Of a stretch of 42,033 nt of DNA, positions 4,581 through 26,723 are shown one piece after another. The number at the start of each line of letters is the position of its first letter. Positions within the stretch are counted from its first letter, which is position 1. A model generated the notes under the pieces. That model worked only from the letters and a program-made list of their open reading frames with translations. It was not told where the DNA came from and ran no database searches. The DNA lies in contig SXIZ01000163.1 in the NCBI GenBank assembly GCA_005779525.1, forward strand, positions 1-42,033, written 5' to 3'. A program made the translations under genes and the position numbers. Source of the stretch: Methylococcaceae bacterium. Lineage in GTDB: Bacteria > Pseudomonadota > Gammaproteobacteria > Methylococcales > Methylomonadaceae.

Positions 4581-5103
4581 TGCGTATTCCAATCATTTAC
4601 AGGCCGATGCACCCAGGTGCGGGCCCGACATTAACTACAGGGTCAAAGTGACATTAAGCCCGACATTATCACCTAAACGTTACCTGGATTGCAATGTGCC
4701 GAAAGCCGTGGCAAGTAATTTCTAGTAAAAATTATTTTACGGAATACTTGAAAGAATTCAGTGTTCAAGTGTGTAGAATAGGGTAAAGATAATGATATGT
4801 GTTAGAGTAATTGCTGCTGCGCATCTTTGACTTTATATGATTAAATAGTCCCCTGTCATGCTGGTAGAGAAAGTATTAAGCGTTTCGGTGTAACGGAGGT
4901 GTGCAAATAAGTTGTTTTAAAATGATTTTAGTATATTGTTTAATAGTAAGAATTTAAAAAAATTGCTCAGTGACGGCCAGTTTACGTTGTAAATTCACTG
5001 AAAATATTTTTTTTTCGACTAGACTTAAACGCAGTAAGCCAAGCTTCTAGATGGTTAGGCAATGTTTTTGTTAAAAAATTTCTATTTATTTAAGGGGAAA
5101 ATA

Positions 5104-5466
5104 ATGGCGAGTATATTGGCAGTTGATGATTCTGCTTCAATGCGGCAGATGGTATCTTTCACGCTTAAAGGAGCAGGATATGATGTTGAAGAAGCGGTTG
5201 ATGGCGTTGATGCCTTAAGTAAAGCAAAAGCCAAAAAATTTGATTGTGTCGTAACCGACGTAAACATGCCCAATAAGGATGGTATCTCGTTAATTAAAGA
5301 TTTAAGAGCGCTTCCAGACTATAAATTTGTCCCATTGCTCATGTTGACGACCGAATCTGGCATGGATAAAAAACAGCAAGGTAAAGAAGCCGGGGCAACA
5401 GGGTGGATAGTCAAACCCTTTAATCCTGATCAGCTATTAAAAACAATCCAAAAAGTTCTAGGATAA
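5104..5466 (+). CDS. cheY: chemotaxis response regulator CheY (single receiver domain)
   Basis: The ATG at 5104 is preceded by AAGGGGA. 120 aa with receiver signature DDS...VVTDVNMPNKDG...T...KP. First gene of the che operon. Confidence 0.9.
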   Translation: MASILAVDDSASMRQMVSFTLKGAGYDVEEAVDGVDALSKAKAKKFDCVVTDVNMPNKDGISLIKDLRALPDYKFVPLLMLTTESGMDKKQQGKEAGATGWIVKPFNPDQLLKTIQKVLG

Positions 5467-5511
5467 GCGCTTATTGCATTGTCTGGTCTTTATTCGCGCG
5501 GGTAATTCTTT

Positions 5512-7602
5512 ATGGCTATTGATATGGCACAATTCCATCAGGTCTTTTTCGAAGAAAGTTTCGAAGGGCTTGAGGCAATGGAATCAGGATTGTTAAATCT
5601 TGACATGGGTGATGTGGATGTTGAAGAAATTAATACTATCTTTAGAGCGGCGCATTCTATAAAAGGTGGCAGTGGAACCTTTGGATTTACCGCTGTTTCG
5701 GATTTCACGCATGTCATGGAAACCTTATTGGATGAAATGCGTGATGGTCGACGTAAAGTCACACAACCTGCCGTCAATGTCCTGCTCGGGGCGGTAGATT
5801 GTTTGCGTGAAATGTTAACAGCGATTCAGAATGAGCAGGATATTGACACACAAAGTGTCGCAGAACACAAGCGACACCTGGATCAAGAGCTGCGCGGTGA
5901 AGTGAGTAATAGCGCTCAAGTCTCGCAGGTAGCTACAGCGAAACCCAAAACCGCTCCAGCGACGCTGAAATCAGTTGCACCTGGTTGGCGTATCACCTTT
6001 TGTCCGCATTTGGATATGTTAAAAACGGGAAACGATCCCGTGCGCATTTTCAGAGAATTGGCTAATCTTGGGGCCTTGGAAACCACGGTTGATCAAAAAG
6101 GTCTCCCCGATTTTTACGATTTGGACCCTGAAGAATGTTATTTATCTTGGGGGCTTAATGTCGCAGGGGATATTGCTCAGTCTAGCATAGAGGAAATATT
6201 TGATTGGGTTGAAGAAAATTGCGATTTATCTCTTCAATCATTTTCAGATTTGGCACAACGCGATTTAGCGCATCAACCCGGAGTTGTCGTATCGGATGAT
6301 GCCGATCCTACACATCATCAGCAAGATCTGAGTCACCCAGAACCTATCGAAGAGAGTTCGGACGCGGCAAAAGTTAAAACCGTTGCTAAAGAAGAAAGTA
6401 AGGTTGCCAATAAAGGTTCAAGCTCGATACGTGTCGAAACCAGCAAAATTGATACGCTGATTAACATGGTGGGTGAGCTGGTGATTACACAATCCATGCT
6501 GAGCTTGGTGGGTGAGCATTTTGAAATTGGCAAATTAGATCATTTAAAAAGTGGTTTAGCGCAGTTAGAGCGACATACTCGCGAATTACAAGAAAGTGTG
6601 ATGAATATTCGCATGTTGCCCATTAGCTTTGTATTTAGTCGTTTTCCTCGCTTAACCCATGATTTAAGTGCAAAATTAGGAAAAAAGATCGAGCTAAAAT
6701 TAGTCGGTGAGCACACAGAAGTCGATAAGACAGTGGTTGAATTAATCAGTGATCCACTTGTGCATTTAGTGCGTAATAGTTTAGATCATGGTATTGAAAT
6801 GCCGAATGAGCGTCTTGCGATGGGTAAACCAGAAACAGGCACAATTATTCTTGAAGCCTATCATCGGGGTGGCAATATTGTTATTGAAGTACGTGACGAT
6901 GGAAAAGGTTTAGATAAAGCCAAGTTACGTGCTAAGGCGATTGAAAAGGGTTTAATCGATAAAGATACGCCATTAACAGATAAGCAAACGTTCGAATTAA
7001 TTTTTATGCCGGGATTTTCCACTGCAGAGAAATTGACTGACATTTCTGGTCGGGGTGTAGGTATGGATGTCGTGCGCCGTAATATCCAGTCACTCGGTGG
7101 CAATATTGAAATCATTTCGGAGTTGGGTAAAGGGTCAACAATTGCTATTCACTTACCGTTGACCCTGGCAATTTTAGATGGTCAATCGATAGCCGTGGGT
7201 GATGAGACTTTTATCGTACCGCTAGTGTCCATCATTGAATCGATTAATGTGACTGATGCCATGACTAATAAAGTCGCTGGTAAGGGTGAAACCTTTAGAT
7301 TACGTGGGGATTATTTACCCATCATCCGCATGCATGAAATTTTTGATGTTAAAACTGCCAAAGCACAAAAACTCACTGAAGGCTTAGTGGTGGTGGTTGA
7401 GGGCCAAGGAATTCGTTGCGGATTGTTTGTAGATGATTTATTAGGGCAACAACAAGTAGTGATTAAATCATTAGAAGCTAATTATCGTCGGGTTGAAGGG
7501 GTTTCCGGGGCGACGATTTTAGGTGATGGATCAGTTGCGTTGATTTTGGACATTCCAGGTTTAGTTCGCTTGTCAAACCAAAAACATGCAGGTAGAGATT
7601 AA
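5512..7602 (+). CDS. cheA: chemotaxis histidine kinase CheA
   Basis: 696 aa. HPt motif HSIKGGSGTFGF, dimerisation and HATPase regions (DPLVHLVRNSLDHG, DDGKGLD, GRGVGMDVV), and a C-terminal CheW-like domain. Confidence 0.95.
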   Translation: MAIDMAQFHQVFFEESFEGLEAMESGLLNLDMGDVDVEEINTIFRAAHSIKGGSGTFGFTAVSDFTHVMETLLDEMRDGRRKVTQPAVNVLLGAVDCLREMLTAIQNEQDIDTQSVAEHKRHLDQELRGEVSNSAQVSQVATAKPKTAPATLKSVAPGWRITFCPHLDMLKTGNDPVRIFRELANLGALETTVDQKGLPDFYDLDPEECYLSWGLNVAGDIAQSSIEEIFDWVEENCDLSLQSFSDLAQRDLAHQPGVVVSDDADPTHHQQDLSHPEPIEESSDAAKVKTVAKEESKVANKGSSSIRVETSKIDTLINMVGELVITQSMLSLVGEHFEIGKLDHLKSGLAQLERHTRELQESVMNIRMLPISFVFSRFPRLTHDLSAKLGKKIELKLVGEHTEVDKTVVELISDPLVHLVRNSLDHGIEMPNERLAMGKPETGTIILEAYHRGGNIVIEVRDDGKGLDKAKLRAKAIEKGLIDKDTPLTDKQTFELIFMPGFSTAEKLTDISGRGVGMDVVRRNIQSLGGNIEIISELGKGSTIAIHLPLTLAILDGQSIAVGDETFIVPLVSIIESINVTDAMTNKVAGKGETFRLRGDYLPIIRMHEIFDVKTAKAQKLTEGLVVVVEGQGIRCGLFVDDLLGQQQVVIKSLEANYRRVEGVSGATILGDGSVALILDIPGLVRLSNQKHAGRD

Positions 7603-7607
7603 GACTT

Positions 7608-8150
7608 ATGTTGCAAACAGATACCAATAATGCCGACTATAAAACTGAAAATGAACCACGTTTAGCCAATATAGAACAATTTTTAAGTTTTGTGTTGGGA
7701 AATGAAGAATATGGGGTCAGTATTCTCCGGGTTCAGGAAATTCGCAGTTGGGAGCCTGTTTCACGGATTCCTAATGTTCCAGTCTACGAAAAAGGTGTCG
7801 TAAATTTACGTGGCGCGATTGTGCCAATTATTGATTTACGCGAACGCTTTAATTTAGGACGCGCTGAATATACGCCGCTGACGGTTGTCGTGGTTTTACA
7901 AGCCCAGGTGAACGGTAAATCACGTACCATGGGGGTGGTTGTCGACTCGGTATCCGATGTAGTGGATGTAGATAAATTCAGTATTCAACGTCCACCAGAT
8001 TTTGGGGCCAAAGTGAGTACCGAATTTATCAACGGCTTAGCTTCAGTTAATCAACGTATGGTGATGTTGTTGGATGTCGAAAAATTGCTTCGTCTAGATG
8101 GCATTGACGATATGGTCACCGAACTCGCTGAAAGTGAATCCAAGCACTAA
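7608..8150 (+). CDS. cheW: chemotaxis coupling protein CheW (copy 1)
   Basis: 180 aa. CheW-like domain ([22 protein letters not shown]...[16 protein letters not shown]). Starts 5 nt after cheA. Confidence 0.9.
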
Positions 8151-8179
8151 TTAATTTTCTACGTAGAAGGATATTTTAT

Positions 8180-10528
8180 ATGAGAGTTAACTTACCGATT
8201 ACAGATCGCGAAGTGGTTATGCAGCCCGGGACAATTCTCGTAACCAAAACCGATTTAAAAGGCATTATTACTTATGCCAATGACGCTTTTGTAGAGATAA
8301 GTGGCTTTACGCGTGAGGAGCTTATCGGTAAGAGCCATAACATCGTACGTCATCCAGACATGCCAGAAGTCGCTTTCCAGGATTTGTGGACTACAGTTAA
8401 ACAAGGACGACCTTGGACGGCCGCGGTAAAAAATCGTACCAAAAACGGTGATTATTATTGGGTCGAAGCTAATGTAACCCCTATGTTTGAGGGGCGAAAA
8501 GTCATAGGCTATCTCTCAGCCCGTTACGCCCCATCCCGCGAATTTATCAAGCAGTCGGCTGAGTGGTATCAGAAGTTGAATGCCTCGGGTGCGAAAACTA
8601 TGCGACCCACTGGAATGGTAGCTAAACTCAAATCCCTATTCGAATTACCACTTACATTTAAATTTAGCGTATTAGCTGTCGCGTATTTATTACCGCTGAT
8701 CTATTTCATGACTACGCTCTATCAGAATGGAAATTATTCTGCTTTAGCGATTGTAGGTGCGTGCGCGTTGACAGCGGTTGCCTTAAATTACAGTTTATTC
8801 CATTTGATCAATGCTACCTTAGAGAAAGGTACGGGAATCTGTTACCGCTTAGCCAATAAATCCTTTAGTAACAAAATAGACTTGAATCGTGAGGATAAGA
8901 TTGGAGATTTCTGGCGTGGCTTATATTCTATGCAGGTTCAGTTGCATGCAGACTTAGCATTCGCCCACGAAGAAGGGGCTAATGCTCAACGGATCAAACA
9001 AGCATTAGACAATGTCGCGTCGTCTGTGATGGTTGCAGATAATAATCTCAATATTATTTATCTCAATAATACGGTTAAAAAGTTATTTCAAAACGCTGAG
9101 AGTGATATTCAGAAGCAATTACCCAATTTTAATGCTGCAAAATTATTAGGATCTAATATTGATATTTTTCATAAAAATCCTGCGCATCAACGTCAGCTAT
9201 TGCTCAATTTGAGTTCTACTTTAAGTTCAAGTTTGCAAATTGGTGGTCGTTATTTAGACATCGTTGCTAATCCGGTGATTACTGAATCCGGCGTAAAAAT
9301 TGGGGTGGTGGTTGAATGGGTAGACCGTTCGAATGAAATTAAAATAGAAAATGAAATTGCAGTCCTCGTAGATGCGGTTAAATCCGGTGATTTGAGTAGT
9401 CGTATTGCCTTAGATGGGAAATCTGGATTTTACGCCAAGTTAAGTCAGGGTATCAATGAAATGAGTGATGTCATTGATCATGGTTTTGTGGATGTGTTGC
9501 AGGTGATGACCGGGATGGCTCAGGGTGATTTGACTCAATATGTGGATAATGATTATGCGGGTATTTATGCAGAATGCCGCGATCATATTAACGAGACCAC
9601 CGCTAAATTACGTGATGTATTTTCAGAAATTAGAGATGCAGCGGAATTTATCAATAACTCTTCACATGAGATTGCCAGTGGAAACAATAATTTATCACAG
9701 CGTGCGGAAGAACAAGCTTCAAGTTTAGAGCAGACCGCCTCAAGCATGGAAGAGTTGACCTCTACCGTTAAAAATAACTCCGATAATGCTCAACGTGCCA
9801 ATATCGTCGCCAGTGAGGCTAGAAATTTAGCTGAAAAAGGTGGGGATGTGGTTAATTCAGCGGTGGCGGCAATGCAAGAAATCAATGAAAGCAGCAACAA
9901 AATTGCTGAAATTATTGGTGTGATTGATGAAATTGCTTTCCAAACTAATCTCCTGGCGTTGAATGCCTCCGTTGAAGCGGCTAGAGCAGGTGAGCAAGGG
10001 CGAGGATTTTCGGTGGTCGCAACTGAAGTGCGCAATTTAGCGCAACGCAGTGCAACCGCTGCCCACCAAAGTAAAGAATTGATTCAAGCGAGCGTCTTAA
10101 AAGTCCGATCCGGTACACAATTTGTCAATGAAACTGGAAAATCACTCAATGCAATTGTGGATAGTATTAAACAAGTAGGTGATATAGTCGCTGAAATTGC
10201 TTCTGCCAGTGCACAGCAGTCCGCAGGAATTGAACAAGTCAATATGGCCGTTGCGCAAATGGACGAAATAACCCAACAAAATGCGGCTTTAGCTGAGCAA
10301 GCCTCGGCTGCAAGCATATCTATGAGTGAGCAAGCAGAGCGTATGACCGCTTTGCTAGATTTTTTTAAAGTCGAAGTCGATAGTAAACCTCTAAAGAATA
10401 ACACTGAGCTAAAAACCAATTCTCAGTCTAAGCATCAAAAAGCAACGCTTCAGACTTCTAAAATCTCCAAATCCACACACGCTGTGGATACTGAAACTGA
10501 TGCAGACGCAAATTGGGATGAGTTTTAG
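8180..10528 (+). CDS. methyl-accepting chemotaxis protein: N-terminal Aer-type PAS, TM hairpin, Aer2-type PAS, HAMP, signalling domain, C-terminal NWDEF pentapeptide
   Basis: 782 aa. The N-terminal PAS carries [17 protein letters not shown]...[12 protein letters not shown] (Aer-like). Two TM helices are joined by a ~6-residue loop. The internal PAS carries [16 protein letters not shown]...[10 protein letters not shown] (Aer2/McpB-like). Receptor tip is [34 protein letters not shown]. The protein ends in NWDEF. Confidence 0.9.
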
Positions 10529-10689
10529 CTATACCCTCTTTGGGATACACTTAAGAGTTGTCGTTGAATCAATACGAAAAGATTTTGAACAAGTGCATCC
10601 CATCGTATGAATTACGTGGACATTAGATTTGAAACAGGTTTGAAGATATCAGTTCCTGTAGGTATTAACTTAAGAGTGGAAAATTCATC

Positions 10690-11181
10690 ATGGTAAGCGA
10701 GACCGCAGATACTAAAAAAATTGAGCAATTTTTGACCTTTCAACTGGATGATGAAGCTTACGGCGTTGAAATTCTGAAGGTTCAGGAAATTCGTGGTTGG
10801 GAGCCTGTTCGGGTGATACCCAATACCCCGCATTACATTAAAGGGGCATTAAATTTGCGAGGCGCTATCGTCCCAATTGTGGATTTGCGGGAGCGTTTTG
10901 GCATGCAGGCTAAAGAGTATACTCCAGTCACCGTGGTCATCGTACTGTGCGTTGAAAATGCTTCAGGTAGCCATGTGATTGGACTAGTCGCGGATGCAGT
11001 TTCAGATGTTTTAGACATTCGCTCGGGAGATATAAAAAAATCTCCAGATCTGGGCTCTAAAATTGATACCCGATATATGCGCGGCATGTACGTATACAAG
11101 CAGGGTATGATTATGCTGCTGGATGCAGATCGATTGCTTAATCCGGCTGAATTTGAAGGCATCAGTCGTTTAGTGGAATAA
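10690..11181 (+). CDS. cheW: chemotaxis coupling protein CheW (copy 2)
   Basis: 163 aa. High similarity by eye to copy 1 across the core (FLTFQLDDEAYGVEILKVQEIRGWEPV...[16 protein letters not shown]). Confidence 0.9.
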   Translation: MVSETADTKKIEQFLTFQLDDEAYGVEILKVQEIRGWEPVRVIPNTPHYIKGALNLRGAIVPIVDLRERFGMQAKEYTPVTVVIVLCVENASGSHVIGLVADAVSDVLDIRSGDIKKSPDLGSKIDTRYMRGMYVYKQGMIMLLDADRLLNPAEFEGISRLVE

Positions 11182-11182
11182 T

Positions 11183-11944
11183 ATGAATGCGCGAGTGGTA
11201 GCAATTTTTAATCAGAAAGGCGGTGTGGGTAAAACAACTACTTCAACTAATCTGAGTCATGCGCTTGCAAAAGCAGGCAAAAAAGTAACCGTTATCGATT
11301 TTGATCCACAAGGACATTTGTCCATCTCACTGGGTATGTTAAATCGCCAAGCTTCTGGGATTGATGCCGTTTTACTCGATGGCGCAGATGTCTCTCAGTG
11401 TGTCATACCGATGCGAGAAAATCTTCAATTAATCCCTTCTGGACCCAAACTACATGACATCGAACTCATGAGCACGGGTGGCGCAAAGCGCAGTGAAATT
11501 TTGAGACATACTTTGTTAAATGACTTCCAAGACCAAGATTATGTGTTTATCGATTGTCCGCCTTCTTCTGGCTTATTGGTAGCAAATGTTTTATTTGCCA
11601 CGGATGAGATTTTAATTCCCATGAGCAGTGATTTTTTAGCATTGCAAGGGCTTTCAGATTTGATCAAAACTATTAGAAAATTTGAGCAGGTTTTAAAGAA
11701 AAAATACAAAACCCAAATAGTGATGGCACGCTATACTTCTAGTAGGAAATTTTCAAAAGAAGTCTTGGGTAAGTTACAGCAATATTTTCCCCAACAAATT
11801 TTAGCGACTGTAATCCGTGAGACTGCGGTATTGTCTGAATGCACTAGTTTTGGCATGACAATTTTTGAGTATCGACCTAAAAGTGTATCGGCGAATGATT
11901 TTCACAATTTAGCCAAAGATTTTTTGCAAGGTAAGGTGATGTAA
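11183..11944 (+). CDS. ParA/MinD-family P-loop ATPase embedded in the che operon
   Basis: 253 aa. Deviant Walker A FNQKGGVGKTTTS, A' box VIDFDPQGH, Walker B YVFIDCPPS. The ATG lies 1 nt after the cheW2 stop, and its TAA overlaps the next ATG (TAATG). Confidence 0.9.
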   Translation: MNARVVAIFNQKGGVGKTTTSTNLSHALAKAGKKVTVIDFDPQGHLSISLGMLNRQASGIDAVLLDGADVSQCVIPMRENLQLIPSGPKLHDIELMSTGGAKRSEILRHTLLNDFQDQDYVFIDCPPSSGLLVANVLFATDEILIPMSSDFLALQGLSDLIKTIRKFEQVLKKKYKTQIVMARYTSSRKFSKEVLGKLQQYFPQQILATVIRETAVLSECTSFGMTIFEYRPKSVSANDFHNLAKDFLQGKVM

Positions 11945-12393
11945 TGGCAAAAAAACAAGAAGAAAGTTTGCTGGGTTATGATCCATTAGCGTGGATGAAT
12001 GAGGAACCGCAAGGCGAGGAAGTTTCTGCTGCGCAAGAGCAAGAGCAAGTAGCGTCTGCTACCGAGCACAGTTCCAATGCTCAAGTAACTCAAGAAAATC
12101 AACTCAAAGTGGTTTTGGAAGCGGTTCAAAATATTCAAAATGTCGCTAATTTACGTGAGGAGATTATTAGTAAATTAGAAAATAGTTTGGGAGCTATCGA
12201 AATTGATGCCTCTGCGGTAAATTCAATTGATACTGCCACCTTACAATTATTTGTGGCCCTTAAAAAAGAAACCGATCGATTAGAACGGGTATTAGTTTTC
12301 GATTTTCCTTCAGAAAGATTTCTGGAGGCCGCTAATCTAATAGGGGTCAGCAAATTATTAGAGCTTGATAAATCTGCCTCTGGATTTTTCTGA
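11944..12393 (+). CDS. STAS-domain protein with basic N-terminal peptide and acidic linker
   Basis: 149 aa. N-terminus MAKKQEESLLGYDPLAWM, then an E/Q-rich linker of about 45 aa. The C-terminal ~95 aa show a STAS-like pattern (IEIDASAVNSIDTATLQLFVAL...VLVFDFPSERFLEAANLIGVSKLL). The STAS assignment is by eye only. Confidence 0.65.
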   Translation: MAKKQEESLLGYDPLAWMNEEPQGEEVSAAQEQEQVASATEHSSNAQVTQENQLKVVLEAVQNIQNVANLREEIISKLENSLGAIEIDASAVNSIDTATLQLFVALKKETDRLERVLVFDFPSERFLEAANLIGVSKLLELDKSASGFF

Positions 12394-12473
12394 GGGTTTC
12401 CCAATTTGTACGATGAACAAAATATCTGCACAAGATATTTTGCAGTTTTGATAGTTGATTAGGGGATTACACA

Positions 12474-13304
12474 GTGAGTAAAGCACGTGAATTTGAATAT
12501 ACGCGGGAGGATTTTAATTTTTTGCGAAAATTATCGAACGAATATTCAGGTATCATAGTTTCTGATGACAAATTTGATATGTTTTATTCGCGCCTATCGA
12601 AACGGGTTAGAGTGCTAGGTCTGCAAAGTTTTAAAGAATATTGTGTTTATTTGGAGAATAATCCAGAAAAAGAATTTACCGATTTTATGAATTCAGTGAC
12701 GACGAATTTGACGTCATTTTTTCGTGAAAATCATCATTTTGAATATCTGAAACAGACGCTCATTCCGATATTACTGAAAAAAAACAGTGCCAGCAAAAAA
12801 ATAACGCTGTGGTCGGCAGGATGTTCAACCGGGGAAGAGCCGTATTCTTTGGCGATGACCTTGTTAGAAAATGTACCCGCTGGCTGGGAAATAAAAATAC
12901 TGGCGACCGATTTAGATACGAATGTACTGAAAGCTTCCGCTGAAGGTATTTACACAACAGACCGTATTGGTGGGCTATCGCCCGAGCGTTTAAAACGCTG
13001 GTTTAAACAAGGGACGGGTGTGAATGCTACCAAGATTAAAGTTAAACCGGAATTACAGGCATTAATTCGCTTCCGCCAATTGAACCTCATGCGTGAATGG
13101 CCCATGAAGGGAAAATTTGATTTTATTTTTTGTAGGAATGTTTTGATTTATTTTGATCGGGAAACTAAAAGTCAGTTAGCCCAACGTTACGCGCAATTTT
13201 TAGAGCCCGCTGGACTACTGTTTATTGGGCATTCAGAGTCACTGCACCAATTAACTACAGATTTTGAGTTAATTGGTAATACCATTTATAAGAAAAAAGG
13301 CTAA
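12474..13304 (+). CDS. cheR: chemotaxis protein methyltransferase CheR
   Basis: 276 aa, GTG start. Motifs TNLTSFFRE, WSAGCSTGEEPYSLAM and FCRNVLIYFD are typical of CheR. Confidence 0.92.
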   Translation: MSKAREFEYTREDFNFLRKLSNEYSGIIVSDDKFDMFYSRLSKRVRVLGLQSFKEYCVYLENNPEKEFTDFMNSVTTNLTSFFRENHHFEYLKQTLIPILLKKNSASKKITLWSAGCSTGEEPYSLAMTLLENVPAGWEIKILATDLDTNVLKASAEGIYTTDRIGGLSPERLKRWFKQGTGVNATKIKVKPELQALIRFRQLNLMREWPMKGKFDFIFCRNVLIYFDRETKSQLAQRYAQFLEPAGLLFIGHSESLHQLTTDFELIGNTIYKKKG

Positions 13305-13310
13305 TAACTA

Positions 13311-13937
13311 ATGGAGTTAAGTCCACCTTCGGTTGCAGGTTTTGAAAATATTTCTCGCTATTGGGACAAAATTAATAATACGGTGGCTGCTAAGCTACTC
13401 CCTGGGGAGTATTATGTCACCAAAGAAAATGAGATGATTACCACGGTGCTTGGCTCTTGCATTTCGGCCTGTATACGCGACAAGATCTCAGGGATTGGAG
13501 GCATGAACCATTTTATGCTTCCCGAAACTTCGCAATCGCGGCTGGATGAAGGGCGCGAGTCAGTAGTAGGTAATGCAACACGCTATGGCAACTACGCTAT
13601 GGAGCATTTGATCAATACCATTTTGGCGAATGGTGGTAAGCGTAAAAATCTCGAAGTTAAAGTATTTGGAGGAGGGAAAATTATCGCGTCACTCGGCGAT
13701 GTCGGGCTAAAAAATATTACTTTTGTTATGGATTATATAGATACTGAGGGACTACTCTTGGTCTCTAAGGATTTAGGCGATATTTATCCGCGTAAAATAA
13801 ATTTTTACCCGCAGTCAGGTCGTGTACGTATGAAGAAAATTCAGGATTTGCATAATGACACGATTGCTCTACGCGAAAGTCAATACCGCCGTACCATTAA
13901 AGATGTACCCGTGGTTGGTGATGTGGAATTGTTTTGA
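13311..13937 (+). CDS. cheD: chemoreceptor glutamine deamidase CheD
   Basis: 208 aa. CheD signature (TVLGSCISACIRD...GMNHFMLP...KVFGGG). Confidence 0.88.
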   Translation: MELSPPSVAGFENISRYWDKINNTVAAKLLPGEYYVTKENEMITTVLGSCISACIRDKISGIGGMNHFMLPETSQSRLDEGRESVVGNATRYGNYAMEHLINTILANGGKRKNLEVKVFGGGKIIASLGDVGLKNITFVMDYIDTEGLLLVSKDLGDIYPRKINFYPQSGRVRMKKIQDLHNDTIALRESQYRRTIKDVPVVGDVELF

Positions 13938-13946
13938 GAAGTGTAC

Positions 13947-15059
13947 ATGGAAAAAATAAAACTGCTTATAGTTGATGATTCGGCGCTGATACGCAAAATT
14001 CTGACTGAAATTTTTAATTCAGCCCCCGATATAGAAGTGGTTGGAGTTGCTGAAGATCCGCTGATTGCTAGGGAGTTGATCAAAAAACTTAACCCAGACG
14101 TATTAACTTTAGATGTTGAAATGCCGCGTATGGATGGCATAACGTTTTTACGCAATTTAATGCGTTTGCGCCCCATGCCTGTAGTGATGATTTCAACTTT
14201 AACTGAAAAAGGTGCGGATATCACTCTTGAAGCTTTGGGTATCGGGGCTGTTGATTTTGTGCCAAAACCTAAAGTCGATGTCAAAAGTACTTTTAATGAC
14301 TATGCTGAAGATATTATTGCTAAAGTCCGTATGGCCTCTAAAGCTAAAATTCAGGGCGTGGAAGTTACAAATTCTACTTCAGGGAGTAAGCGGGCTGTAA
14401 AATCTTTACCTCCTACGGTTCTCGGATGCTCACAAAATAATTCGGTGGACATTATTATTCCAGCTCTCCTAGAGCGGCCACTAATCAGAAAAACTGAAAA
14501 AATTATTGCCTTAGGCTCGTCGACTGGCGGTACCGAAGCAGTAAAAGTTGTCGCGCGCGAGTTGCCTGAGAATACGCCCGCCATTTTGATCTCGCAACAT
14601 TTGCCTGTTGCGTTTAGTGCGTCTTTTGCCAAGCATGTGAACGATATCTCTCCCATGCAGGTGTCACTTGCTGAAGATGGGCAACCCATTTTGCCTGGCA
14701 ATATTTATATTGCGCCTGGAGATAAACATTTGTTAGTGTTGCGGGAGGCAGGGCGGTATATTTGTCGTTTGCATAGTGGTCCGCCAGTGAATCGGCACAA
14801 ACCCTCGGTTGATGTGATGTTTCGTTCAGTTGCGCAGCAGGTAGGATCTAATGCTATTGGGGTGATGTTAACCGGAATGGGTGCGGATGGTGCACGGTGC
14901 ATGAAGGAAATGCGTGATGCGGGCGCTAGAAATATCGTTCAAGATGAGGAATCGAGTGTGGTTTGGGGAATGCCAGGCGAAGCTTACCGATTAGGAGCGG
15001 CTGAAGTGGTAGTTCCTTTAAATCAGATTGCTAAACAAATACTTAAATTTGCGAGTTAA
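13947..15059 (+). CDS. cheB: protein-glutamate methylesterase/deamidase CheB
   Basis: The track ORF starts at GTG 13941; the ATG at 13947 gives [12 protein letters not shown]. It has a receiver domain plus a methylesterase domain ([21 protein letters not shown]). Confidence 0.92.
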
Positions 15060-15070
15060 CGGGAGGCAAA

Positions 15071-16261
15071 ATGAAACACTTTCTATCTAGAAACTGGTTG
15101 CCTATCGCATTGACGCTAATTTTGTTGGTTCTGCCAATGGCATTGCCAACACAGTACCTTTTTTGGATTGCCGTACCCCTTATTTCTTTAACGTGGGCCA
15201 TTAACGGTTATCAGCAAGTGAAACAAGCTGAGCAACAGCAGTTGGAGCTTGATCGACAAAATCAGTTGCAAAATATTGCGGCGATAGATACTTATTTGCA
15301 GGCTTTAGATGGCTGTATTAAACAAGAAGTGCAGCAGTTTATTGCCGATTTAGGACAGCTTCGCTCTGTAGTCGGTGACGCTGTGAACACCATGGGAAAT
15401 AGTTTTAAAAGCTTGCATAGCTTGTCATCCGATCAGGCGAGAATCGTCTTCTCAATTGTGGGCAATACTGGGAAAAATGATAAGGCAATTAGTTTTACGC
15501 GCTTTGCCGAAGAAACCGATCAAGTACTACGCTATTTTATCGATCATATTTTATTGATTAGCAAACAAAGTATGGAAATGGTGGCGGTGATTGGCGATTT
15601 GCGGGAACACATGGGTTTAGTAGAAAAACTGGTGAGTGATGTTCAAGGGATTGCTGATCAAACCAATCTGTTGGCGCTAAATGCAGCTATTGAGGCCGCT
15701 CGTGCTGGTGAAGCGGGGCGTGGCTTTGCCGTTGTTGCCGAAGAGGTGCGTAATTTATCGAAAAATTCCGATAAATTTAGCGAAGAAATTCGCAAAGTGG
15801 TTAATGCTTCGAAATCCAACATCGAGCGAGCGAATCAAATGATAGAGACCATGGCCTCCAAAGACATGAATGTTGCAATAACCTCTAAATCTAAAATTGA
15901 TCAAATGATGGCGGATATTGCGGTTATGAATGTCGCGATGGAGCAGAAATTATTGCAGGTCTCAGAATTAAGCAAACATTTGGATTTTACAGTGAACGAT
16001 GCCGTTAGAGGCTTGCAGTTTGAAGATTTAACCCGTCAATTAATCGAATACCTTCAAGGAAATACGCGGCATTTCCAAGTCCTTGCTGAGGAAGTACGTT
16101 TAGGCTTAGGGATTTTTAAAACCGATGATCCGCAATTGTGGGTGGGTGAACTGGAAAGTGGTCAAAAACGTTTACTCACGATGCAGCAAGATTGGCAAGA
16201 TAAAGGAAAAAAAATTGTGGCTCAGAACTCAATGTCGGAAGGCGAAATTGAAATGTTCTAG
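15071..16261 (+). CDS. short membrane-anchored methyl-accepting chemotaxis protein without a periplasmic sensor domain
   Basis: 396 aa. Two adjacent N-terminal TM helices have almost no loop between them. Coiled coil follows, then the tip [34 protein letters not shown]. The protein ends in EIEMF. GGGAGG RBS. Confidence 0.88.
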
Positions 16262-16315
16262 ATAAACAACTATCCTCATAGTATTTAAGAATAACGAAAC
16301 TTAGAGAGAAATATA

Positions 16316-16621
16316 ATGGCGGTAACAACTAACTTCGATGCATCAAAATCGATTTTAACTATCAAAATTGCTGGTCGATTTGATTTTGGTGCCCATCAAG
16401 ATTTTCGGAATGCTATAGATCAAATTAAGTTGACTACCAAACAAGTTGTGATTGATTTTTATGCGACAGAGTACATGGATAGCTCGGCTTTAGGTATGCT
16501 GTTGGTATTACGCGATAAAGTCAGTACGAGCTCTCAATCTATTAAGTTAATGAATATTCGGCCAGAAGTTAGAAAGATATTGGAAATTGCGAATTTTGAT
16601 AAATTATTTAATCTGGGATAA
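16316..16621 (+). CDS. STAS-domain anti-sigma-factor antagonist (SpoIIAA/RsbV/CrsA/HsbA-like)
   Basis: 101 aa. Typical STAS pattern with a candidate phospho-serine in YMDSSALGMLLVL, followed by NIRPEVRKILEIANFDKLF. Confidence 0.85.
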   Translation: MAVTTNFDASKSILTIKIAGRFDFGAHQDFRNAIDQIKLTTKQVVIDFYATEYMDSSALGMLLVLRDKVSTSSQSIKLMNIRPEVRKILEIANFDKLFNLG

Positions 16622-16829
16622 TAGGTGAGTTGCTGAAAAAGCCAAGAATGTATGATGTTCTATGCGTGATATTAATTTAAAAGTATTGTATTCTAGAAAA
16701 TTGAATGCTTTGTTTGAAGTGCTATCTTTACCGCAGCAACACACTTTTGGGCTGAGTCAAGTGACATTCAACGCTGTTTTATGAGCTTGGCGATAAATGC
16801 AGAATTTAATGGTTTAAAAATAAAAAAAT

Positions 16830-18512
16830 ATGACCGATTCATTAGCTTTACCTCATGCCAGAATTCTCGTTGCTGACGATAGTCGCTTACAACGTGAAAT
16901 GCTGGCGAGCTTGTTAGGTGATATCGGCTACCAAATTATCTTGGCAGAAGATGGTTTTGCAGCATTAGAGCTATTCAAAGCGCACCAACCTGATTTAGTG
17001 TTACTGGATATTATGATGCCTAAGTTGGACGGCATCCAAGTGGCTAGAGAAATTGCTGCACTTTTGAAAAATGATTATGTCCCGATTGTGTTCATTACCA
17101 GTATGGATACCGAAGACTTACTCAATAAATGCGTTGCTGCGGGGGGTGATGACTTTATTAACAAGCCTTATAACAGTGTTCTGCTCAGTGCCAAAATCAA
17201 TTCCTTATTACGCGTTAAAAGGCTGTATGAAGAACTGCGCAGTCAAAAACATGAGTTGCTAAAGTATCAGGAACTATACGAACAAGAACAACAAGTCGCA
17301 GCAAGTTTATATAAAAATATTTTACACGCGGATTTTGTTGAAACTTCCATCTTACGCTATTCACTGTCCCCAATGGCCTTATTTAATGGGGATATTCTAT
17401 TAACGTCCAAGGCTCCAGGAAATCGCTTTTATGTGTTGTTAGGGGATTTTACGGGGCATGGATTATCCGCGTCCATCGGCGCTGAGCCAACGGCACAAAT
17501 ATTCTATGGGATGGCGCGTAAAGGCTTCGCTGGCGAAGAAATTATTAAAGAAATCAATCGCAAATTACATAAGCTTTTACCGGTAAATATGTTTCTGGCG
17601 ACCACCTTGGTGACTTTACGCGCCGATTCCAGTTTTATGGAAATCATTACCTGTGGTTTACCCGCACATTATCTGTTACATAAACCGACGCGCAAAATCC
17701 GCAGTATTGAATCTAAGAACTTTCCCTTAGGCATCATGGCGACTTATGAGCCTAAAGTGGAATATTTTGAAATTGATCACCATGATTATCTGTATTTGTT
17801 CACAGACGGTGTGATTGAGGCCCAAAATATCGCAGGGCAGCAATTTGATATTTCTGGGGTCATGGCGTGTCTGGAAAATGAAGTCGAGTCACCGTATGAC
17901 AGTATCTTACATAATCTTGCCGTGCATACTCAGGGTTTGGAGCAGCAAGATGATGTCACTTTTGTGGAATTGCATTGTGATTTGAAAAATGCAATTTGGC
18001 AATCAGTCGGTAAGCCACTGGCGGTACAAAAATGTCCTGCATTAACCTGGAGTAGTAAGTTAAGCTTCAGTGTCGAAACTTTGCAACAAGTTAACCCGGT
18101 TCCTGTGATGTTGAATATGCTGATGGATATTCAGGCATTACAGAGTTTCCAGGAAGCGATTTTTTGTATCGTAAATGAATTATTTATCAATGCCTTGGAT
18201 TATGGGCTATTGGCGATGGATGGCAAATTAAAACTGACTTCCGAAGGTTTAATTAAATTTCATGCGATTAAAGAACAACGCTTACAAGAAGTCAAAACTG
18301 GGTCTATAGTGGTAGATTTTCAGCATCAACCTACCGAGGTGGGCGGGCGTTTACAAATTAGCTTAAAAGATTCCGGCGCAGGATTTGATTTTGCAGCGGA
18401 ATTGAAACCAAATCGTGGCATTTATCGGGTACATACCCTGTGCTCTAAATTGGAATATGGCAATGGTGGGCGTGAAGTTTTAGCTGTTTTTGATTGGAGC
18501 TATCAAGAATAA
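16830..18512 (+). CDS. three-domain response regulator: receiver + PP2C/SpoIIE phosphatase + RsbW-like GHKL kinase/anti-sigma domain (CrsR/HsbR-like)
   Basis: 560 aa. Receiver (ILVADDS, DLVLLDIMMPKLDG, KP). PP2C motifs (GDFTGHGLSAS, YLYLFTDGVIEA, QQDDVTFVEL). C-terminal N-box-like ELFINALDYG and G1-like LKDSGAGFD. Confidence 0.85.
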   Translation: MTDSLALPHARILVADDSRLQREMLASLLGDIGYQIILAEDGFAALELFKAHQPDLVLLDIMMPKLDGIQVAREIAALLKNDYVPIVFITSMDTEDLLNKCVAAGGDDFINKPYNSVLLSAKINSLLRVKRLYEELRSQKHELLKYQELYEQEQQVAASLYKNILHADFVETSILRYSLSPMALFNGDILLTSKAPGNRFYVLLGDFTGHGLSASIGAEPTAQIFYGMARKGFAGEEIIKEINRKLHKLLPVNMFLATTLVTLRADSSFMEIITCGLPAHYLLHKPTRKIRSIESKNFPLGIMATYEPKVEYFEIDHHDYLYLFTDGVIEAQNIAGQQFDISGVMACLENEVESPYDSILHNLAVHTQGLEQQDDVTFVELHCDLKNAIWQSVGKPLAVQKCPALTWSSKLSFSVETLQQVNPVPVMLNMLMDIQALQSFQEAIFCIVNELFINALDYGLLAMDGKLKLTSEGLIKFHAIKEQRLQEVKTGSIVVDFQHQPTEVGGRLQISLKDSGAGFDFAAELKPNRGIYRVHTLCSKLEYGNGGREVLAVFDWSYQE

Positions 18513-18574
18513 GACGGCAATCACTTGGGTGAGGCAATTCTAGGATTCATGGTAAAAAGTAGGGGCGGTAACGC

Positions 18575-19189
18575 ATGAGAAAAAATCAAACAAATTCGCA
18601 GTTCGTGGCTGTGGCTTCAATTGCAGCGGAACTCAGTGCCGTTATGGATGTGGCTAAGGAAATATCTCTGGCGGCGGCAAACGCAAAAGCGATTGCCTTT
18701 CGGGCGGGGGAGAAAGCTAAAGGTTTTCAACCTATCACAGATTTTATTAATGAGTTGGCCAAGGACACCATTGAATTAGTTAATGAAATTAATCAACACG
18801 CCATGCAATTATATCAATTGACTGTGGATGAATATCGCATGACAGAAGCGCATAACAAATTTGAATTAGCCGCAAAATATGCCAAAGGTGCGCAGTATGA
18901 GCAGTCATTAAATGCGCCGCGGCTAAAAGCACAGCAAAACATGCAGGATTGTTTGCGTCAATTTAATGCCCATATTGCACAATTACTCGATCAACTGGGT
19001 GAAGTGATGCACCCTGCCCGTGCTGCACGAGTGATCGCTGCGAACTCACGTATTGAGGCTTCGCAAGCTGGAGAATACTTACAAAGTTTACAGGCAGTAG
19101 CCGAGAGCGTCGATAACGCGGCGCAAGTTATTCACGATAACGTGCAGCGGTGCCGCAGCGCTTTATCATTTATTACGATCACAGAATAG
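18575..19189 (+). CDS. soluble protein with two degenerate MCP receptor-tip motifs
   Basis: 204 aa with a good RBS. No TM segment or HAMP domain. Residues ~31-63 (SLAAANAKAIAFRAGEKAKGFQPITDFINELA) and ~150-184 (ARVIAANSRIEASQAGEYLQSLQAVAESVDNAA) both align with the tips of the two MCPs in this operon. Confidence 0.7.
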   Translation: MRKNQTNSQFVAVASIAAELSAVMDVAKEISLAAANAKAIAFRAGEKAKGFQPITDFINELAKDTIELVNEINQHAMQLYQLTVDEYRMTEAHNKFELAAKYAKGAQYEQSLNAPRLKAQQNMQDCLRQFNAHIAQLLDQLGEVMHPARAARVIAANSRIEASQAGEYLQSLQAVAESVDNAAQVIHDNVQRCRSALSFITITE

Positions 19190-19217
19190 TGACAGATCAG
19201 CTAGGGTAGGGTTACGC

Positions 19218-19946
19218 ATGAAAATGACAAAAATTTACGAAGGATCGTATCAGTGGATTATGTATGGGCGTGATGAAAATAAACCCAACAATATTATTGA
19301 TACCAATCAATATATTGTAAGAACTGCGAATCGTTGTTTGTTGATTGATCCAGGTGGAATAGAATTATTTGCTCCGATGCTGGCAGCGGTATTACACCAT
19401 GCACCTGTCGAGCAAATCACTGATTTATTTGCGTCGCATCAAGATCCAGATATTATTTCTTCCTTGGGATTATGGGATCAGGCTTTGCCCAATGCTAAAC
19501 TTCACGCCCCTGCAATTTGGGAAGGTTTTTTGCGCCATTTCGGCTGTGATAGCATTGAATATGTCGCTATTCCAGATAATGGTGGGGTAATTCGATTAGA
19601 AAATGTAGAATTAAAAATTATTCCTGCGCATTATTTGCACTCTTCAGGGAATTTTCATATTTATGATCCCAATGCCAAAATCTTGTTTTCCGGAGATGTG
19701 GGTGCTGCCTTGGAAACACCGGGTGCGCCAATGTATGTCGATAATTTTGATGCTCACGTAGAAAAAATGCGTTACTTTCACCAACGTTGGATGCCATCGA
19801 ATCAAGCAAAACGCAATTGGATAGAACGTGTCCGAGAACTGGATATTGACGTGCTCGCACCACAACATGGTCGTGTCTTTAAAGGTGATGATGTTCGCCG
19901 CTTCCTGGATTGGTTTGAAGGATTACAAGTGGGGACCGCTGTTTAA
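19218..19946 (+). CDS. metallo-beta-lactamase-fold protein, ODP (oxygen-binding di-iron protein)/flavodiiron-core-like
   Basis: 242 aa. MBL-type ligand pattern LLIDPGG...SHQDPD (H74, D76, D78)...PAHYLHS (H138/H141)...FSGD (D160)...PQHG (H217). No flavodoxin domain. Last gene of the che operon. Confidence 0.65.
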   Translation: MKMTKIYEGSYQWIMYGRDENKPNNIIDTNQYIVRTANRCLLIDPGGIELFAPMLAAVLHHAPVEQITDLFASHQDPDIISSLGLWDQALPNAKLHAPAIWEGFLRHFGCDSIEYVAIPDNGGVIRLENVELKIIPAHYLHSSGNFHIYDPNAKILFSGDVGAALETPGAPMYVDNFDAHVEKMRYFHQRWMPSNQAKRNWIERVRELDIDVLAPQHGRVFKGDDVRRFLDWFEGLQVGTAV

Positions 19947-19989: not shown

Positions 19990-20019
19990 TTGACAAACCC
20001 CCTTTAAAACCGTTATCTT
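19990..20019 (+). promoter_or_regulatory. candidate sigma70 promoter for thiD (TTGACA-N18-TATCTT)
   Basis: A perfect -35 TTGACA lies at 19990-19995 and a weak -10 TATCTT at 20014-20019. The -10 overlaps the terminator stem. Pattern match only. Confidence 0.3.
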
Positions 20020-20040
20020 TCCTGATAACGGTTTTTTTAT
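20006..20040 (+). terminator. Rho-independent terminator closing the chemosensory operon
   Basis: AAAACCGTTATC (20006-20017), loop TTTCCT, GATAACGGTTTT (20024-20035), running into a T-rich tract (TTTTTTTATTTT). Confidence 0.85.
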
Positions 20041-20054
20041 TTTAGGTAAGACAT

Positions 20055-20846
20055 ATGAGTTCAATTCGGCCCGTAGTTCTATGTTTTTCCGGGCATGATC
20101 CCTGTGGCGGTGCGGGTTTGCAAGCAGATATTGAGGTACTTATTTCGCATCGTTGTCACGCTGCGACGGTGGTGACCGCGTTGACTGAACAGGATACGCA
20201 TAATATCCGTAAAGTTATTCCTCAAACTGCTGCCGAGTTCAAAGCACAAGCGCTTACAATTCTGAGTGATTTACCTGTGAAAGTCATCAAAATAGGTTTG
20301 CTTGGAAGTTATGACATTATTCTAGCGGTGCAAAAAATTCTGCAAGCGTATCCGAATATCCCGGTGGTGTTTGATCCGATTCTAGCTGCAGGTGGTGGAA
20401 TGCATTTGGCAGATGACGATTTACGGCAAGCAATGATAGAACGAATATTACCGCATACGTTTATTTGTACTCCAAACTCGCACGAGGCAAGGCAACTTAC
20501 CCAGTTGGATGATTTAAAAGCGTGTGGACGTGCGTTATTAGAGATGGGCTGTAAAAATGTACTGCTAACTGGGGCGCATGAAGATACCCGAGCGGTACGT
20601 AATCAACTTTTTCGCCCCGAGGAGACGGTAGAAACCTTTACCTGGGAACGCTTAGGTCATCAGTATCATGGTTCTGGTTGTACCTTGGCATCCAGTATAG
20701 CGGCTTTATTGGCACATGATCTGGATTGCTTCGTCGCTGTCAGTGAAGCGCAAGAATATACCTGGAATGCCCTCAGTAAGGCCTATCCTACGGGAACGGG
20801 CCAATACAATCCCAATCGATTTTTTTGGGTGGATGATGAAAATTAA
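20055..20846 (+). CDS. thiD: hydroxymethylpyrimidine/phosphomethylpyrimidine kinase
   Basis: 263 aa. ThiD/PfkB-family pattern (VLCFSGHDPCGGAGLQADI, VKIGLLGS, VVFDPIL, HGSGCTLASSIAALLA). Confidence 0.88.
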   Translation: MSSIRPVVLCFSGHDPCGGAGLQADIEVLISHRCHAATVVTALTEQDTHNIRKVIPQTAAEFKAQALTILSDLPVKVIKIGLLGSYDIILAVQKILQAYPNIPVVFDPILAAGGGMHLADDDLRQAMIERILPHTFICTPNSHEARQLTQLDDLKACGRALLEMGCKNVLLTGAHEDTRAVRNQLFRPEETVETFTWERLGHQYHGSGCTLASSIAALLAHDLDCFVAVSEAQEYTWNALSKAYPTGTGQYNPNRFFWVDDEN

Positions 20847-21183
20847 TGTTCTGGGGGTAGCCATTTTAGCGCTGGGATTAACTGCCTGCATTGCCAATAT
20901 TGCTGATCCACAAACCTTAGCCCTGGGTAAACAGATTGCCTTCGAGCGTTCTAAAGGCAATTGCTTGGCATGTCATCAAATTGCCGATGGTGAACAGCCA
21001 GGTAATTTGGGACAACCTTTGATTGGCATCGCAAGTAAATACCAGGATAAACAGCAATTGCGCCACCTAATTTGGGATGCGACCCAACACAATCCTGAAA
21101 CGACCATGCCACCCTTTGGACGCAATAAAATACTTACTGAAGCGGACTTAGACAGTGTGGTCGAGTATTTGTGGAGTTTATAG
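20833..21183 (+). CDS. monohaem c-type cytochrome lipoprotein, SoxX-like
   Basis: The internal ATG at 20833 gives MMKINVLGVAILALGLTAC (lipobox LTAC). Haem motif CLACH. The sequence PGNLGQPL...NPETTMPPFGRNKILTEADLDSVVEYL resembles SoxX as remembered. Overlaps the thiD end by 14 nt. Confidence 0.7.
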   Translation: MMKINVLGVAILALGLTACIANIADPQTLALGKQIAFERSKGNCLACHQIADGEQPGNLGQPLIGIASKYQDKQQLRHLIWDATQHNPETTMPPFGRNKILTEADLDSVVEYLWSL

Positions 21184-25810: not shown

Positions 25811-26723
25811 GCGGTGCAGTTGCGCTGGCTAACGTGTAAAAACGGGCGACTACGGTATTGCCATTTCCTTGATATTCTAAGTAATCGAAACTCAATTTTT
25901 TAGCAATGGCGATACCACGTCCATGTAAATCAAAAGCCCGTTCCGATGAAAATTCTAAGTAGCTGCTCCAATCGAAGCCTGTCCCTTGGTCTTGCACAGT
26001 AAATTGTAGAAATTCGGCTTGGCGTTGAAAGTGCACATTCACATAACGCGTCCGATATTCGGGTAATTGTAGGCGACGAGCAATCTCATCATGCCACGTA
26101 TTTTTAAGCAGTAATGCGCCTTTTTCAGCATAAGAGATTTCTAAATTTCCATGCTCTACGGCATTGGTCAGTAGTTCTTGCAACCCTTGGACTGCGCGTT
26201 CGGGTTCGGGACAAGCTTGCGCCAGATAATTGGCGAGCAGGACCGCTTCATCTAAGTTGTGAAAACGAAAGCTTCCCATTTGTAATAATGCCACGGGGCG
26301 CTCTGCACTTCGCACGCTATTAAGCATATTGTTAATATTTTTGGATTGTTCTTCTGCTGCTTTGACAACGGCGAGTAACACTTCAGCCTGAAATGGCTTG
26401 GTCAGATAGTAGTAAGCGCCATGGATTAAGCCTTCGTGAATGCTTTCATGATCACCTTGAGCGGTTTCAATGATGACTGGGGTATTTGCAAAACTGGTAT
26501 CACTTTTAATCCGTCGCAATAATTCCAGGCCATCTAAGCCTGGTAGTCCGCGATCTAACAAAATAATATCGTAAGGCGGTTGGGTCGCTTGTAAATTTTC
26601 CCATGCGGATAAGCCATCCGAGCACACATGGACCGAATATCCTTCACTGGTCAGTAAGTCCTGAATAATGATGGCAATTAGCAATTCATCTTCAGCTAAC
26701 AGAATACGGGTGGGTTGACTCAT
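25803..26723 (-). CDS. response regulator: receiver fused to an RsbW/SpoIIAB-like GHKL (HATPase_c_2-type) domain
   Basis: The ATG at 26723 ([13 protein letters not shown]) overlaps the upstream TGA (ATGA). Receiver [14 protein letters not shown]...KP. C-terminal N-box [14 protein letters not shown]1-like QDQGTGFD, G2-like GRGIAI. Confidence 0.8.

Follow-up and report, generated by a model that had tools for sequence, protein, structure and literature searches.

The window analysed here is a 42,033-nucleotide stretch of contig SXIZ01000163.1 (assembly GCA_005779525.1) from a methane-oxidising Methylococcaceae bacterium. Within its chemosensory (che) gene cluster, a gene for a ParA/MinD-type ATPase of 253 amino acids immediately precedes a gene for a 149-amino-acid STAS-domain protein. 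ParA/MinD ATPases position many bacterial cargos, and an adaptor assigns each ATPase to its cargo. To our knowledge, only two types of adaptor are on record for chemosensory arrays: ParP, which is CheW-like, and the receptor TlpT. On the basis of sequence comparisons we propose, with a probability of roughly 0.6, that the F7 (Aer2-type, “stage 1”) array has its own dedicated ParA-type positioning module, in which the 149-residue protein acts as cargo adaptor. Array positioning by che-encoded ParA-like ATPases is already known, so what is new here is the adaptor domain, the docking motif and the class of array. Full-text literature searches found no described ParA-STAS pair in chemosensory systems, in line with an earlier note on this DNA that was made from the letters alone; STAS proteins inside che operons do have a precedent, however, in CheS (PMC12654446).

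The pairing of the two genes is widely conserved, and the earlier note was right to treat them as translationally coupled. A pattern scan of one genome per species gave 80 Methylococcales genome loci, all with the same cluster, and tblastn searches using the window proteins place the ParA gene directly 5′ of the STAS gene in 78 of these. Stop and start codons overlap or abut in 74 of the 78 (73 in the extracted sequences, and L004 after correction to its true ATG), with spacings of −1 (32 loci), −14 (17), −4 (14), 0 (6) and −11 (4). Apparent exceptions in L064, L065, L071 and L075 were dismissed because runs of N interrupt the linker or the ParA gene, and the N-terminal motif described below follows the ParA stop wherever the sequence is readable. 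In the window, the ParA stop codon (TAA, 11942-11944) and the STAS start codon (ATG, 11944-11946) share one base, and the ParA gene itself begins (ATG, 11183) 1 nt after the stop codon of cheW2 (TAA, 11179-11181). Four distant lineages, with ParA proteins 46-56% identical to that of the window (L081/82, L083, L084 and L094/95), have the same overlapping pair, again inside clusters of cheA, cheW and methyl-accepting chemotaxis protein (MCP) genes followed by cheR-cheD-cheB. The order cheR-cheD-cheB is kept directly 3′ of the STAS gene in every locus that reaches far enough. The ParA-STAS arrangement is not a chance juxtaposition.

The 149-residue protein begins with MAKKQEESLLGYDPLAWM and carries near this end a short linear motif with the family consensus LIG[YF]DPLAW[ML]. 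In an alignment of 32 members, G11, D13, P14, L15, A16 and W17 are invariant, and the motif was found in 208 of 242 family members. Large hydrophobic or aromatic residues dominate it (L/I10, Y/F12, L15, W17 and M/L18), and residues 16-19 form a short helix in an AlphaFold2 (AF2) model. Across all six reading frames of the window, a DPLAW-type motif occurs only in this protein, and neither of the cluster MCPs carries one. All four distant lineages have the motif or a near variant, for example MIGHNPLAWL or LGDDPLSWM. Motif presence tracks ParA presence in every context examined, which covers at least ten lineages; among these loci we found none with the motif but no ParA, or with ParA but no motif.

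The earlier note had read this N-terminus as a lysine-containing basic peptide of the kind that activates ParA proteins. Its tie to ParA stands, as the element occurs with ParA and is lost or degenerate in six lineages without it. The basic character does not: the conserved element, G-x-D-P-L-A-W, is hydrophobic and aromatic with an invariant Asp, conservation of K4 is partial, and no K/R precedes the motif in 70 of the 208 members that bear it (34%) (e.g., MAEEDEDSLIGYDPLAWL). Some distant members do have a strongly basic stretch ahead of the same motif (e.g., ...KKPATKKSKSLIGVDPLAWLN).

Lineages without ParA separate the two parts of the STAS protein. In all six that were examined, a STAS orthologue stays in the same slot before cheR, commonly straight after the cheW gene that is the counterpart of cheW2. 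The motif is absent in Methylotuvimicrobium sp. KM1 and M. buryatense 5G (L051, L059) and in L087. In L088 the N-terminus is basic and lacks DPLAW, in L090/L091 MAEKDED is kept and the motif is replaced, and in L092/L093, where the gene lies directly 3′ of an MCP gene, a degenerate GHDQLTW is left. Because the STAS gene persists without ParA, we conclude that its core is an accessory of che clusters of this class that does not depend on ParA; because the N-terminal motif is deleted or degenerate in the same lineages, we conclude that it is a ParA-dependent add-on with no role in the absence of ParA. ParP and ParC follow the same logic. On a neighbour-joining tree of CheR and CheD, which lacks support values and is indicative, the ParA-less lineages are interspersed among ParA-bearing ones, a scattering that points to probably at least four independent losses of ParA.

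One ParA-less group carries a different N-terminal motif. It reads FSQKFxQAExW in L085/L086 and, more generally, F-[SA]-QKF-x-QAE-x-W in a subgroup of STAS proteins (P0199, P0206, P0209, P0210 and P0229; positions 8001-8588 in L085). This suggests that the extension can be re-tooled for another partner. One of these proteins, P0209, also has the stretch DFDPLEAI in its interior, which resembles a remnant of DPLAW.

The C-terminal part of the protein has the STAS fold that the earlier note had suspected. Pfam matches exceed their cut-offs for STAS_2 (35.7 bits; cut-off 29.2) and STAS (31.2 bits; cut-off 22.6), and there is no Pfam match to CheW. The AF2 model, built with 32 homologues, has a beta-alpha core at residues 52-145 with a predicted local distance difference test (pLDDT) score of 73-90. 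Its best Foldseek matches in the PDB are RsbV (6M36), SpoIIAA (1TID), TM1442 (1VC1), RsbS and MlaB (7CH8), with a probability of 1.00, target-normalised template modelling (TM) scores of 0.64-0.76 and root-mean-square deviations of 1.5-2.4 Å. Conserved elements of the core include IDASAV..IDTATLQL and DFPSERF; in the 32-member alignment IDAS, D96, Q101-L102 and DFPS..F are invariant. In an alignment to TM1442, D96-T97 falls on the D-S phospho-site, with T97 in the place of the canonical phospho-Ser. Family members are labelled “MlaB component” in some sources; we rejected this membership, as the MlaB model scores 16.9 bits against a cut-off of 90 and no mla genes lie nearby.

Between motif and core lies a segment that is rich in E/Q/S (residues 19 to ~55) and predicted to be disordered, with pLDDT below 50 at residues 21-51; residues 1-11 are likewise disordered. 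Across the family this linker spans 26-167 residues (median 61) with an E+D content of 28%. Its length shifts even among close relatives, as is typical of a rapidly evolving entropic tether. Simple repeats in the linker (ETETET..., or RNRNRN or QKQKQK in other frames) are masked with N in L064 (~7800-7900), L065 and L075. At the other end of the protein, a G[FL]F tail occurs in 181 of the 242 members and is missing from a Methylobacter/Methylovulum-type subclade whose proteins end in ..DVLDVHDA. By analogy with the aromatic C-terminal pentapeptides of receptors, this tail could serve in docking. A word-indexed search gave 163 homologues of the 149-residue protein, nearly all of them from Methylomonadaceae, and a full hidden Markov model scan of 1.84 billion representatives gave 718 at E ≤ 1e-10. 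A tblastn search of the PLSDB plasmids with the STAS protein gave no match.

The upstream gene encodes a genuine ParA/MinD-type protein inside the che cluster, and here too the reading in the earlier note proved sound. Profile matches to AAA_31 (6.6e-47, 160 bits) and CbiA (5.3e-22, 78.6 bits) are above their cut-offs, and none of the NCBIfam equivalog models reached its cut-off for this protein. The nearest solved structure is the ParA protein of Myxococcus xanthus (8RAY, 2.4e-40), followed by Soj proteins, and the alignment runs from end to end. Residues 10-19 read NQKGGVGKTT and include the signature lysine of the deviant Walker A motif; D41 (DFDPQG, Walker A′) and D124 (FIDCPP, Walker B) are conserved in the family. 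The ATPase looks active, given that K12, G13, G16 and D41 are unchanged in 77 of 77 orthologues. The orthologues from the 78 ParA-bearing loci and the four distant lineages are 46-70% identical to the window ATPase. The other features that the earlier note had read directly from the letters (the 1-nt gap after cheW2, the TAATG overlap, the N-terminal peptide and the E/Q-rich stretch) are all correct.

The ParA family also carries a distinctive set of residues where a partner might bind. In M. xanthus ParA, the corresponding positions form the hydrophobic cleft that binds ParB (PMC12462528), and they map here to Q95, S129, V/L131, A134, R/K166 and L171. All six are conserved inside the family and differ from chromosomal ParA, a pattern that fits a private partner specificity. 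The basic R/K166, which occupies the position of L187 in the M. xanthus protein, could conceivably face the invariant Asp13 of the motif, which would make an attractive pairing.

We suggest the following mechanism for the proposed module. The STAS core would serve che clusters of this class in general as an accessory, is always encoded just 5′ of cheR, after cheW, the MCP gene or parA, whether or not ParA is there, and would dock on an array component (CheA, CheW, a receptor tip or the adaptation enzymes), as CheS does on CheA. In ParA-bearing lineages the protein would add the N-terminal motif on a long, acidic, disordered tether. The motif would bind ParA dimers, so that the STAS protein bridges the F7 array and ParA, and the array would be tethered wherever ParA dimers sit, whether on the nucleoid or at a polar landmark. 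Array number, position and inheritance would in turn be under the control of the ATPase cycle. The sequence comparisons show the anatomy of the genes, their translational coupling, the STAS fold, the intact ATPase motifs, the co-conservation and the joint loss of motif and ParA; we infer the physical binding of motif to ParA, any stimulation of the ATPase, the association of the STAS core with the array and the identity of the positioning matrix. Partners of ParA/MinD proteins use N-terminal peptides (PMC10241942), and the layout of motif, tether and domain is that of ParP, which by analogy leads us to propose a cargo adaptor.

Several observations weigh against this proposal. The binding partner suggested for the STAS core is deduced from gene position and the analogy with CheS. 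The motif has no conserved basic residue of the kind that usually goes with ATPase stimulation, and with a third of its bearers lacking an upstream K/R it may tether ParA without stimulating it, or act differently. Arg238 of M. xanthus ParA, which in chromosomal ParA serves non-specific DNA binding, is V/L216 in the present family, and the invariant R188 sits one residue off the position of Arg209, the other canonical DNA-binding arginine. The joint loss of motif and ParA could partly reflect single deletions that removed parA together with the 5′ end of the gene downstream. Finally, the only F7 array imaged in a methanotroph is that of Methylomicrobium alcaliphilum, whose arrays are membrane-bound (PMC7184735). 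The sampled relatives in its genus lack ParA, and in the data of the same study its F7 locus-tag range appears to be one gene shorter than that of Methylomonas methanica; F7 arrays thus seem able to form without the ParA module.

The earlier note had linked the STAS protein to the partner-switch components encoded downstream, as a substrate or ligand of RsbW-like GHKL domains, which would wire ParA positioning to a sigma-factor switch. The candidates are a CrsR-like REC-PP2C-HATPase protein (16830-18512) and a REC-HATPase_c_2 protein (25803-26771). T97 does occupy the phospho-Ser position of SpoIIAA/RsbV-type proteins, a site that is Thr in 218 of the 228 members that could be scored. Structurally, the protein comes closest to RsbV and SpoIIAA bound to their kinases, and the window, like many relatives, encodes a second STAS protein of 101 residues (STAS101) and the CrsR-like three-domain regulator in the same operon. 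However, about 17 loci of the Methylobacter/Methylovulum type keep the ParA-STAS pair whole without having the mcpA-like, STAS101 and REC-PP2C genes, and in 10 members, among them the ParA-linked P0220 and P0228, the phospho-site residue is Ala. STAS101 reaches the anti-sigma-antagonist model TIGR00377 (53.9 bits; cut-off 53.45) and is the obvious cognate of the CrsR-like protein, whereas the 149-residue protein has no match to that model, is STAS_2/MlaB-like and is not detectably similar to STAS101 (E = 1.3). We therefore regard the link to the partner switch as quite improbable, although for the window's own protein, which has T97, it keeps some small probability.

A role in signalling, though still unlikely, deserves somewhat more weight. 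The STAS protein might mainly modulate signalling, acting on CheA/CheY in the manner of CheS or as a tether for CheR, CheD or CheB, and ParA would regulate it, for example by ATP-dependent sequestration away from the array, so that the pair would tune signalling or adaptation and not location. The persistence of the STAS core 5′ of cheR-cheD-cheB in lineages without ParA implies a job that does not need ParA, CheS is known to alter CheA-CheY interactions (PMC12654446), and the G-F-F tail loosely recalls the aromatic pentapeptides at C-termini to which CheR/CheB are tethered; the Aer2-like MCP here ends in NWDEF. Against this, all characterised ParA-like ATPases of che clusters, ParC and PpfA, position arrays (PMC10241942, PMC5706961), the motif-tether-domain layout is that of a cargo adaptor, and the sequences give no sign of a regulatory rather than a spatial output. 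It is very improbable that the two proteins are uncoupled neighbours, with ParA served by another partner such as an MCP or a CheW and the motif binding something else. The motif does lack the basic residue typical of ParA activators, but its perfect match with ParA over at least ten lineages, the repeated co-loss, the conserved stop/start overlap and its restriction to a single window protein all argue for coupling.

The proposed adaptor was compared with ParC, PpfA, ParP and CheS through their descriptions and not by sequence. In the ParC-ParP systems of Vibrio, Pseudomonas and Halothiobacillus, which serve F6 arrays, a ParA-like ATPase is likewise encoded in the che cluster beside its adaptor (PMC5706961, PMC7534058). 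In ParP, the N-terminal region binds ParC, and a long linker connects it to a C-terminal CheW-like domain that integrates into the array (PMC5706961); the candidate has a comparable arrangement of an N-terminal element predicted to interact with the ATPase, a flexible linker and a C-terminal domain. The array-side domain differs (STAS instead of the CheW-like AIF domain), as do the linker, which is acidic here and proline-rich in ParP, and the cluster, which is of F7 type (cheD and an aer2-like MCP, no cheZ) and not F6. PpfA of Rhodobacter/Cereibacter sphaeroides is also a ParA-like ATPase of a che operon, and its partner TlpT contacts it through the N-terminus and is part of the array (PMC5706961, PMC10241942). 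Unlike the small STAS protein, however, TlpT is a chemoreceptor of the cytoplasm and the nucleoid serves as matrix, whereas the F7 arrays of relatives associate with the membrane and the present ParA family does not conserve one of the two canonical arginines for DNA binding.

Closer parallels for single parts of the protein come from other systems. Sinorhizobium and Agrobacterium have, in CheS, a small STAS protein of a che operon that binds CheA (PMC12654446); unlike the window protein, CheS consists of the STAS domain only and is encoded without ParA at the 5′ end of alpha-proteobacterial operons. Chromosomal ParB of M. xanthus has a short N-terminal hydrophobic motif, thought to form a short helix that docks on the ParA dimer's edge (PMC12462528). 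The DPLAW motif is similarly short, N-terminal and rich in large hydrophobic residues, but the residue at the centre of the ParB motif is Arg or Lys, whereas the DPLAW motif contains an Asp that never varies and conserves no basic residue. In the complex of MlaB with the P-loop ATPase MlaF, too, a STAS_2-type domain is paired with a nucleotide-binding protein, and MlaB is among the structural matches; unlike MlaB, the present STAS core persists without an ATPase, which implies that the core is not the element that binds ParA.

The pair lies in a single, tightly packed chemosensory operon on the plus strand (5062-19946; Table 1), followed by a strong terminator-like hairpin at 20006-20035; the GC content of the window is 44%. 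The closest genomes are from uncultured Methylococcales, and in the nearest locus (L001) CheY is 93% and CheA 78% identical. The gene order of the window agrees with the published F7 “stage 1” order, cheY-cheA-two cheW-aer2-like-cheR-cheD-cheB-mcpA-like-STAS-Ser phosphatase (Ortega et al., 2020, PMC7184735). The window CheA is orthologous to those of Methylomonas methanica MC09 and Methylomicrobium alcaliphilum 20Z, which are labelled F7 in the supplementary trees of that study (PMC7184735). With cheD and an aer2-like MCP present and no cheZ in the window cluster, the context is not that of an F6 system; both cluster MCPs have hydrophobic membrane segments. The published description begins with an anti-sigma-factor antagonist upstream of cheY, and no STAS gene lies 5′ of cheY in the window between 4592 and 5062. 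The same description does not name the STAS gene that precedes cheR, and the study covers STAS genes and the phosphatase of stage-1 clusters and no ParA (PMC7184735).

Table 1. Features of the ParA-STAS pair and of the surrounding chemosensory operon (window coordinates).
Feature	Position	Strand	Basis
cheY-cheA-cheW-aer2-like MCP, 5′ part of the F7-type cluster	5062-10528	+	Pfam; F7 “stage 1” order (PMC7184735)
cheY	5062 (start)	+	Pfam
cheA	5512 (start)	+	Pfam
cheW (first)	7608 (start)	+	Pfam
aer2-like MCP, PAS-PAS-HAMP, C-terminal NWDEF	8180 (start)	+	Pfam
cheW2	10690-11181	+	Pfam CheW, 2.5e-34
ParA/MinD-type ATPase, 253 aa	11183-11944	+	AAA_31, CbiA
Deviant Walker A, KGGVGKTT (K12-T19)	11216-11239	+	Read from sequence
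Coupling junction: Shine-Dalgarno-like run AAGGTGA (11933-11939), then TAATG	11933-11946	+	Sequence
STAS protein, 149 aa, adaptor candidate (N-terminal motif, acidic linker, STAS domain)	11944-12393	+	Pfam, AF2, Foldseek
N-terminal short linear motif, LLGYDPLAWM (L9-M18)	11968-11997	+	
Acidic, disordered, length-variable linker (residues ~19-51)	11998-12096	+	AF2, family alignment
STAS domain (residues ~52-145)	12097-12378	+	Pfam, AF2, Foldseek
C-terminal G-F-F tail	12382-12390	+	G147 and F149 invariant (32-member alignment)
cheR-cheD-cheB, directly 3′ of the 149-aa STAS gene	12474-15059	+	Pfam
mcpA-like MCP, membrane-anchored, C-terminal EIEMF	15071 (start)	+	
STAS101, 101 aa	16316 (start)	+	Matches anti-sigma-antagonist model TIGR00377
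REC-PP2C(SpoIIE) protein, 560 aa, RsbW-like C-terminus, CrsR-like	16830-18512	+	
Short MCP fragment, 204 aa	18575 (start)	+	
ODP di-iron protein	19218 (start; pair with MCP fragment 18575-19946)	+	

Other signalling genes surround the pair. STAS101 and the REC-PP2C(SpoIIE) protein, whose C-terminus has an N-box and a G-box (ELFINALDYG ... DSGAGF), together occupy 16316-18512 on the plus strand. We take them to be a three-domain partner switch of the CrsR/CrsA type, which has been linked in the literature to F7/Che1 systems and to RpoS control. The next two plus-strand genes (18575-19946) encode the signalling-domain fragment of an MCP and ODP, a di-iron oxygen-binding protein with a metallo-beta-lactamase fold. 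Across Methylococcales the 3′ end of the cluster keeps this pair with 71-85% identity, even where the partner-switch genes are missing, and the pair may feed O2/NO sensing into the F7 system. Beyond the operon, a thiD-like open reading frame (20055-20846, plus strand) overlaps a 155-residue open reading frame in another frame (20716-21183) by about 130 nt. A convergent three-gene signalling unit follows on the minus strand (21188-27829). It encodes a 1540-residue multi-PAS hybrid histidine kinase with REC and Hpt domains, a 322-residue RsbW-like REC-HATPase_c_2 protein, the start of which lies within the end of the gene upstream, and a 369-residue REC-HD-GYP protein. From 28169 onward come genes for the flagellar rod and hook (flgB, flgC, flgD and further).

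If the proposal is correct, the known range of adaptors would grow by one that has a STAS domain and docks through a non-basic motif, and the STAS gene that precedes cheR in F7 “stage 1” clusters would gain a function. Methylotuvimicrobium, which lacks both ParA and the motif, and Methylomonas, which has both, offer natural controls. F7 arrays have a poorly understood role in the cell. In Vibrio they are polar, and their localisation does not appear to depend on the other two che clusters (PMC7534058); the pair described here would provide a concrete handle on the placement of such arrays. More tentatively, and at slightly less than even odds, LIG[YF]DPLAW[ML] may represent a new, non-basic class of ParA-docking motif and the STAS protein a hitherto unrecognised baseplate-associated component of F7 arrays. 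Together with ParA they would then form a third type of array-positioning system after ParC-ParP and PpfA-TlpT, one that would place or segregate the stress-linked F7 array independently of the F6 array of the same cell.

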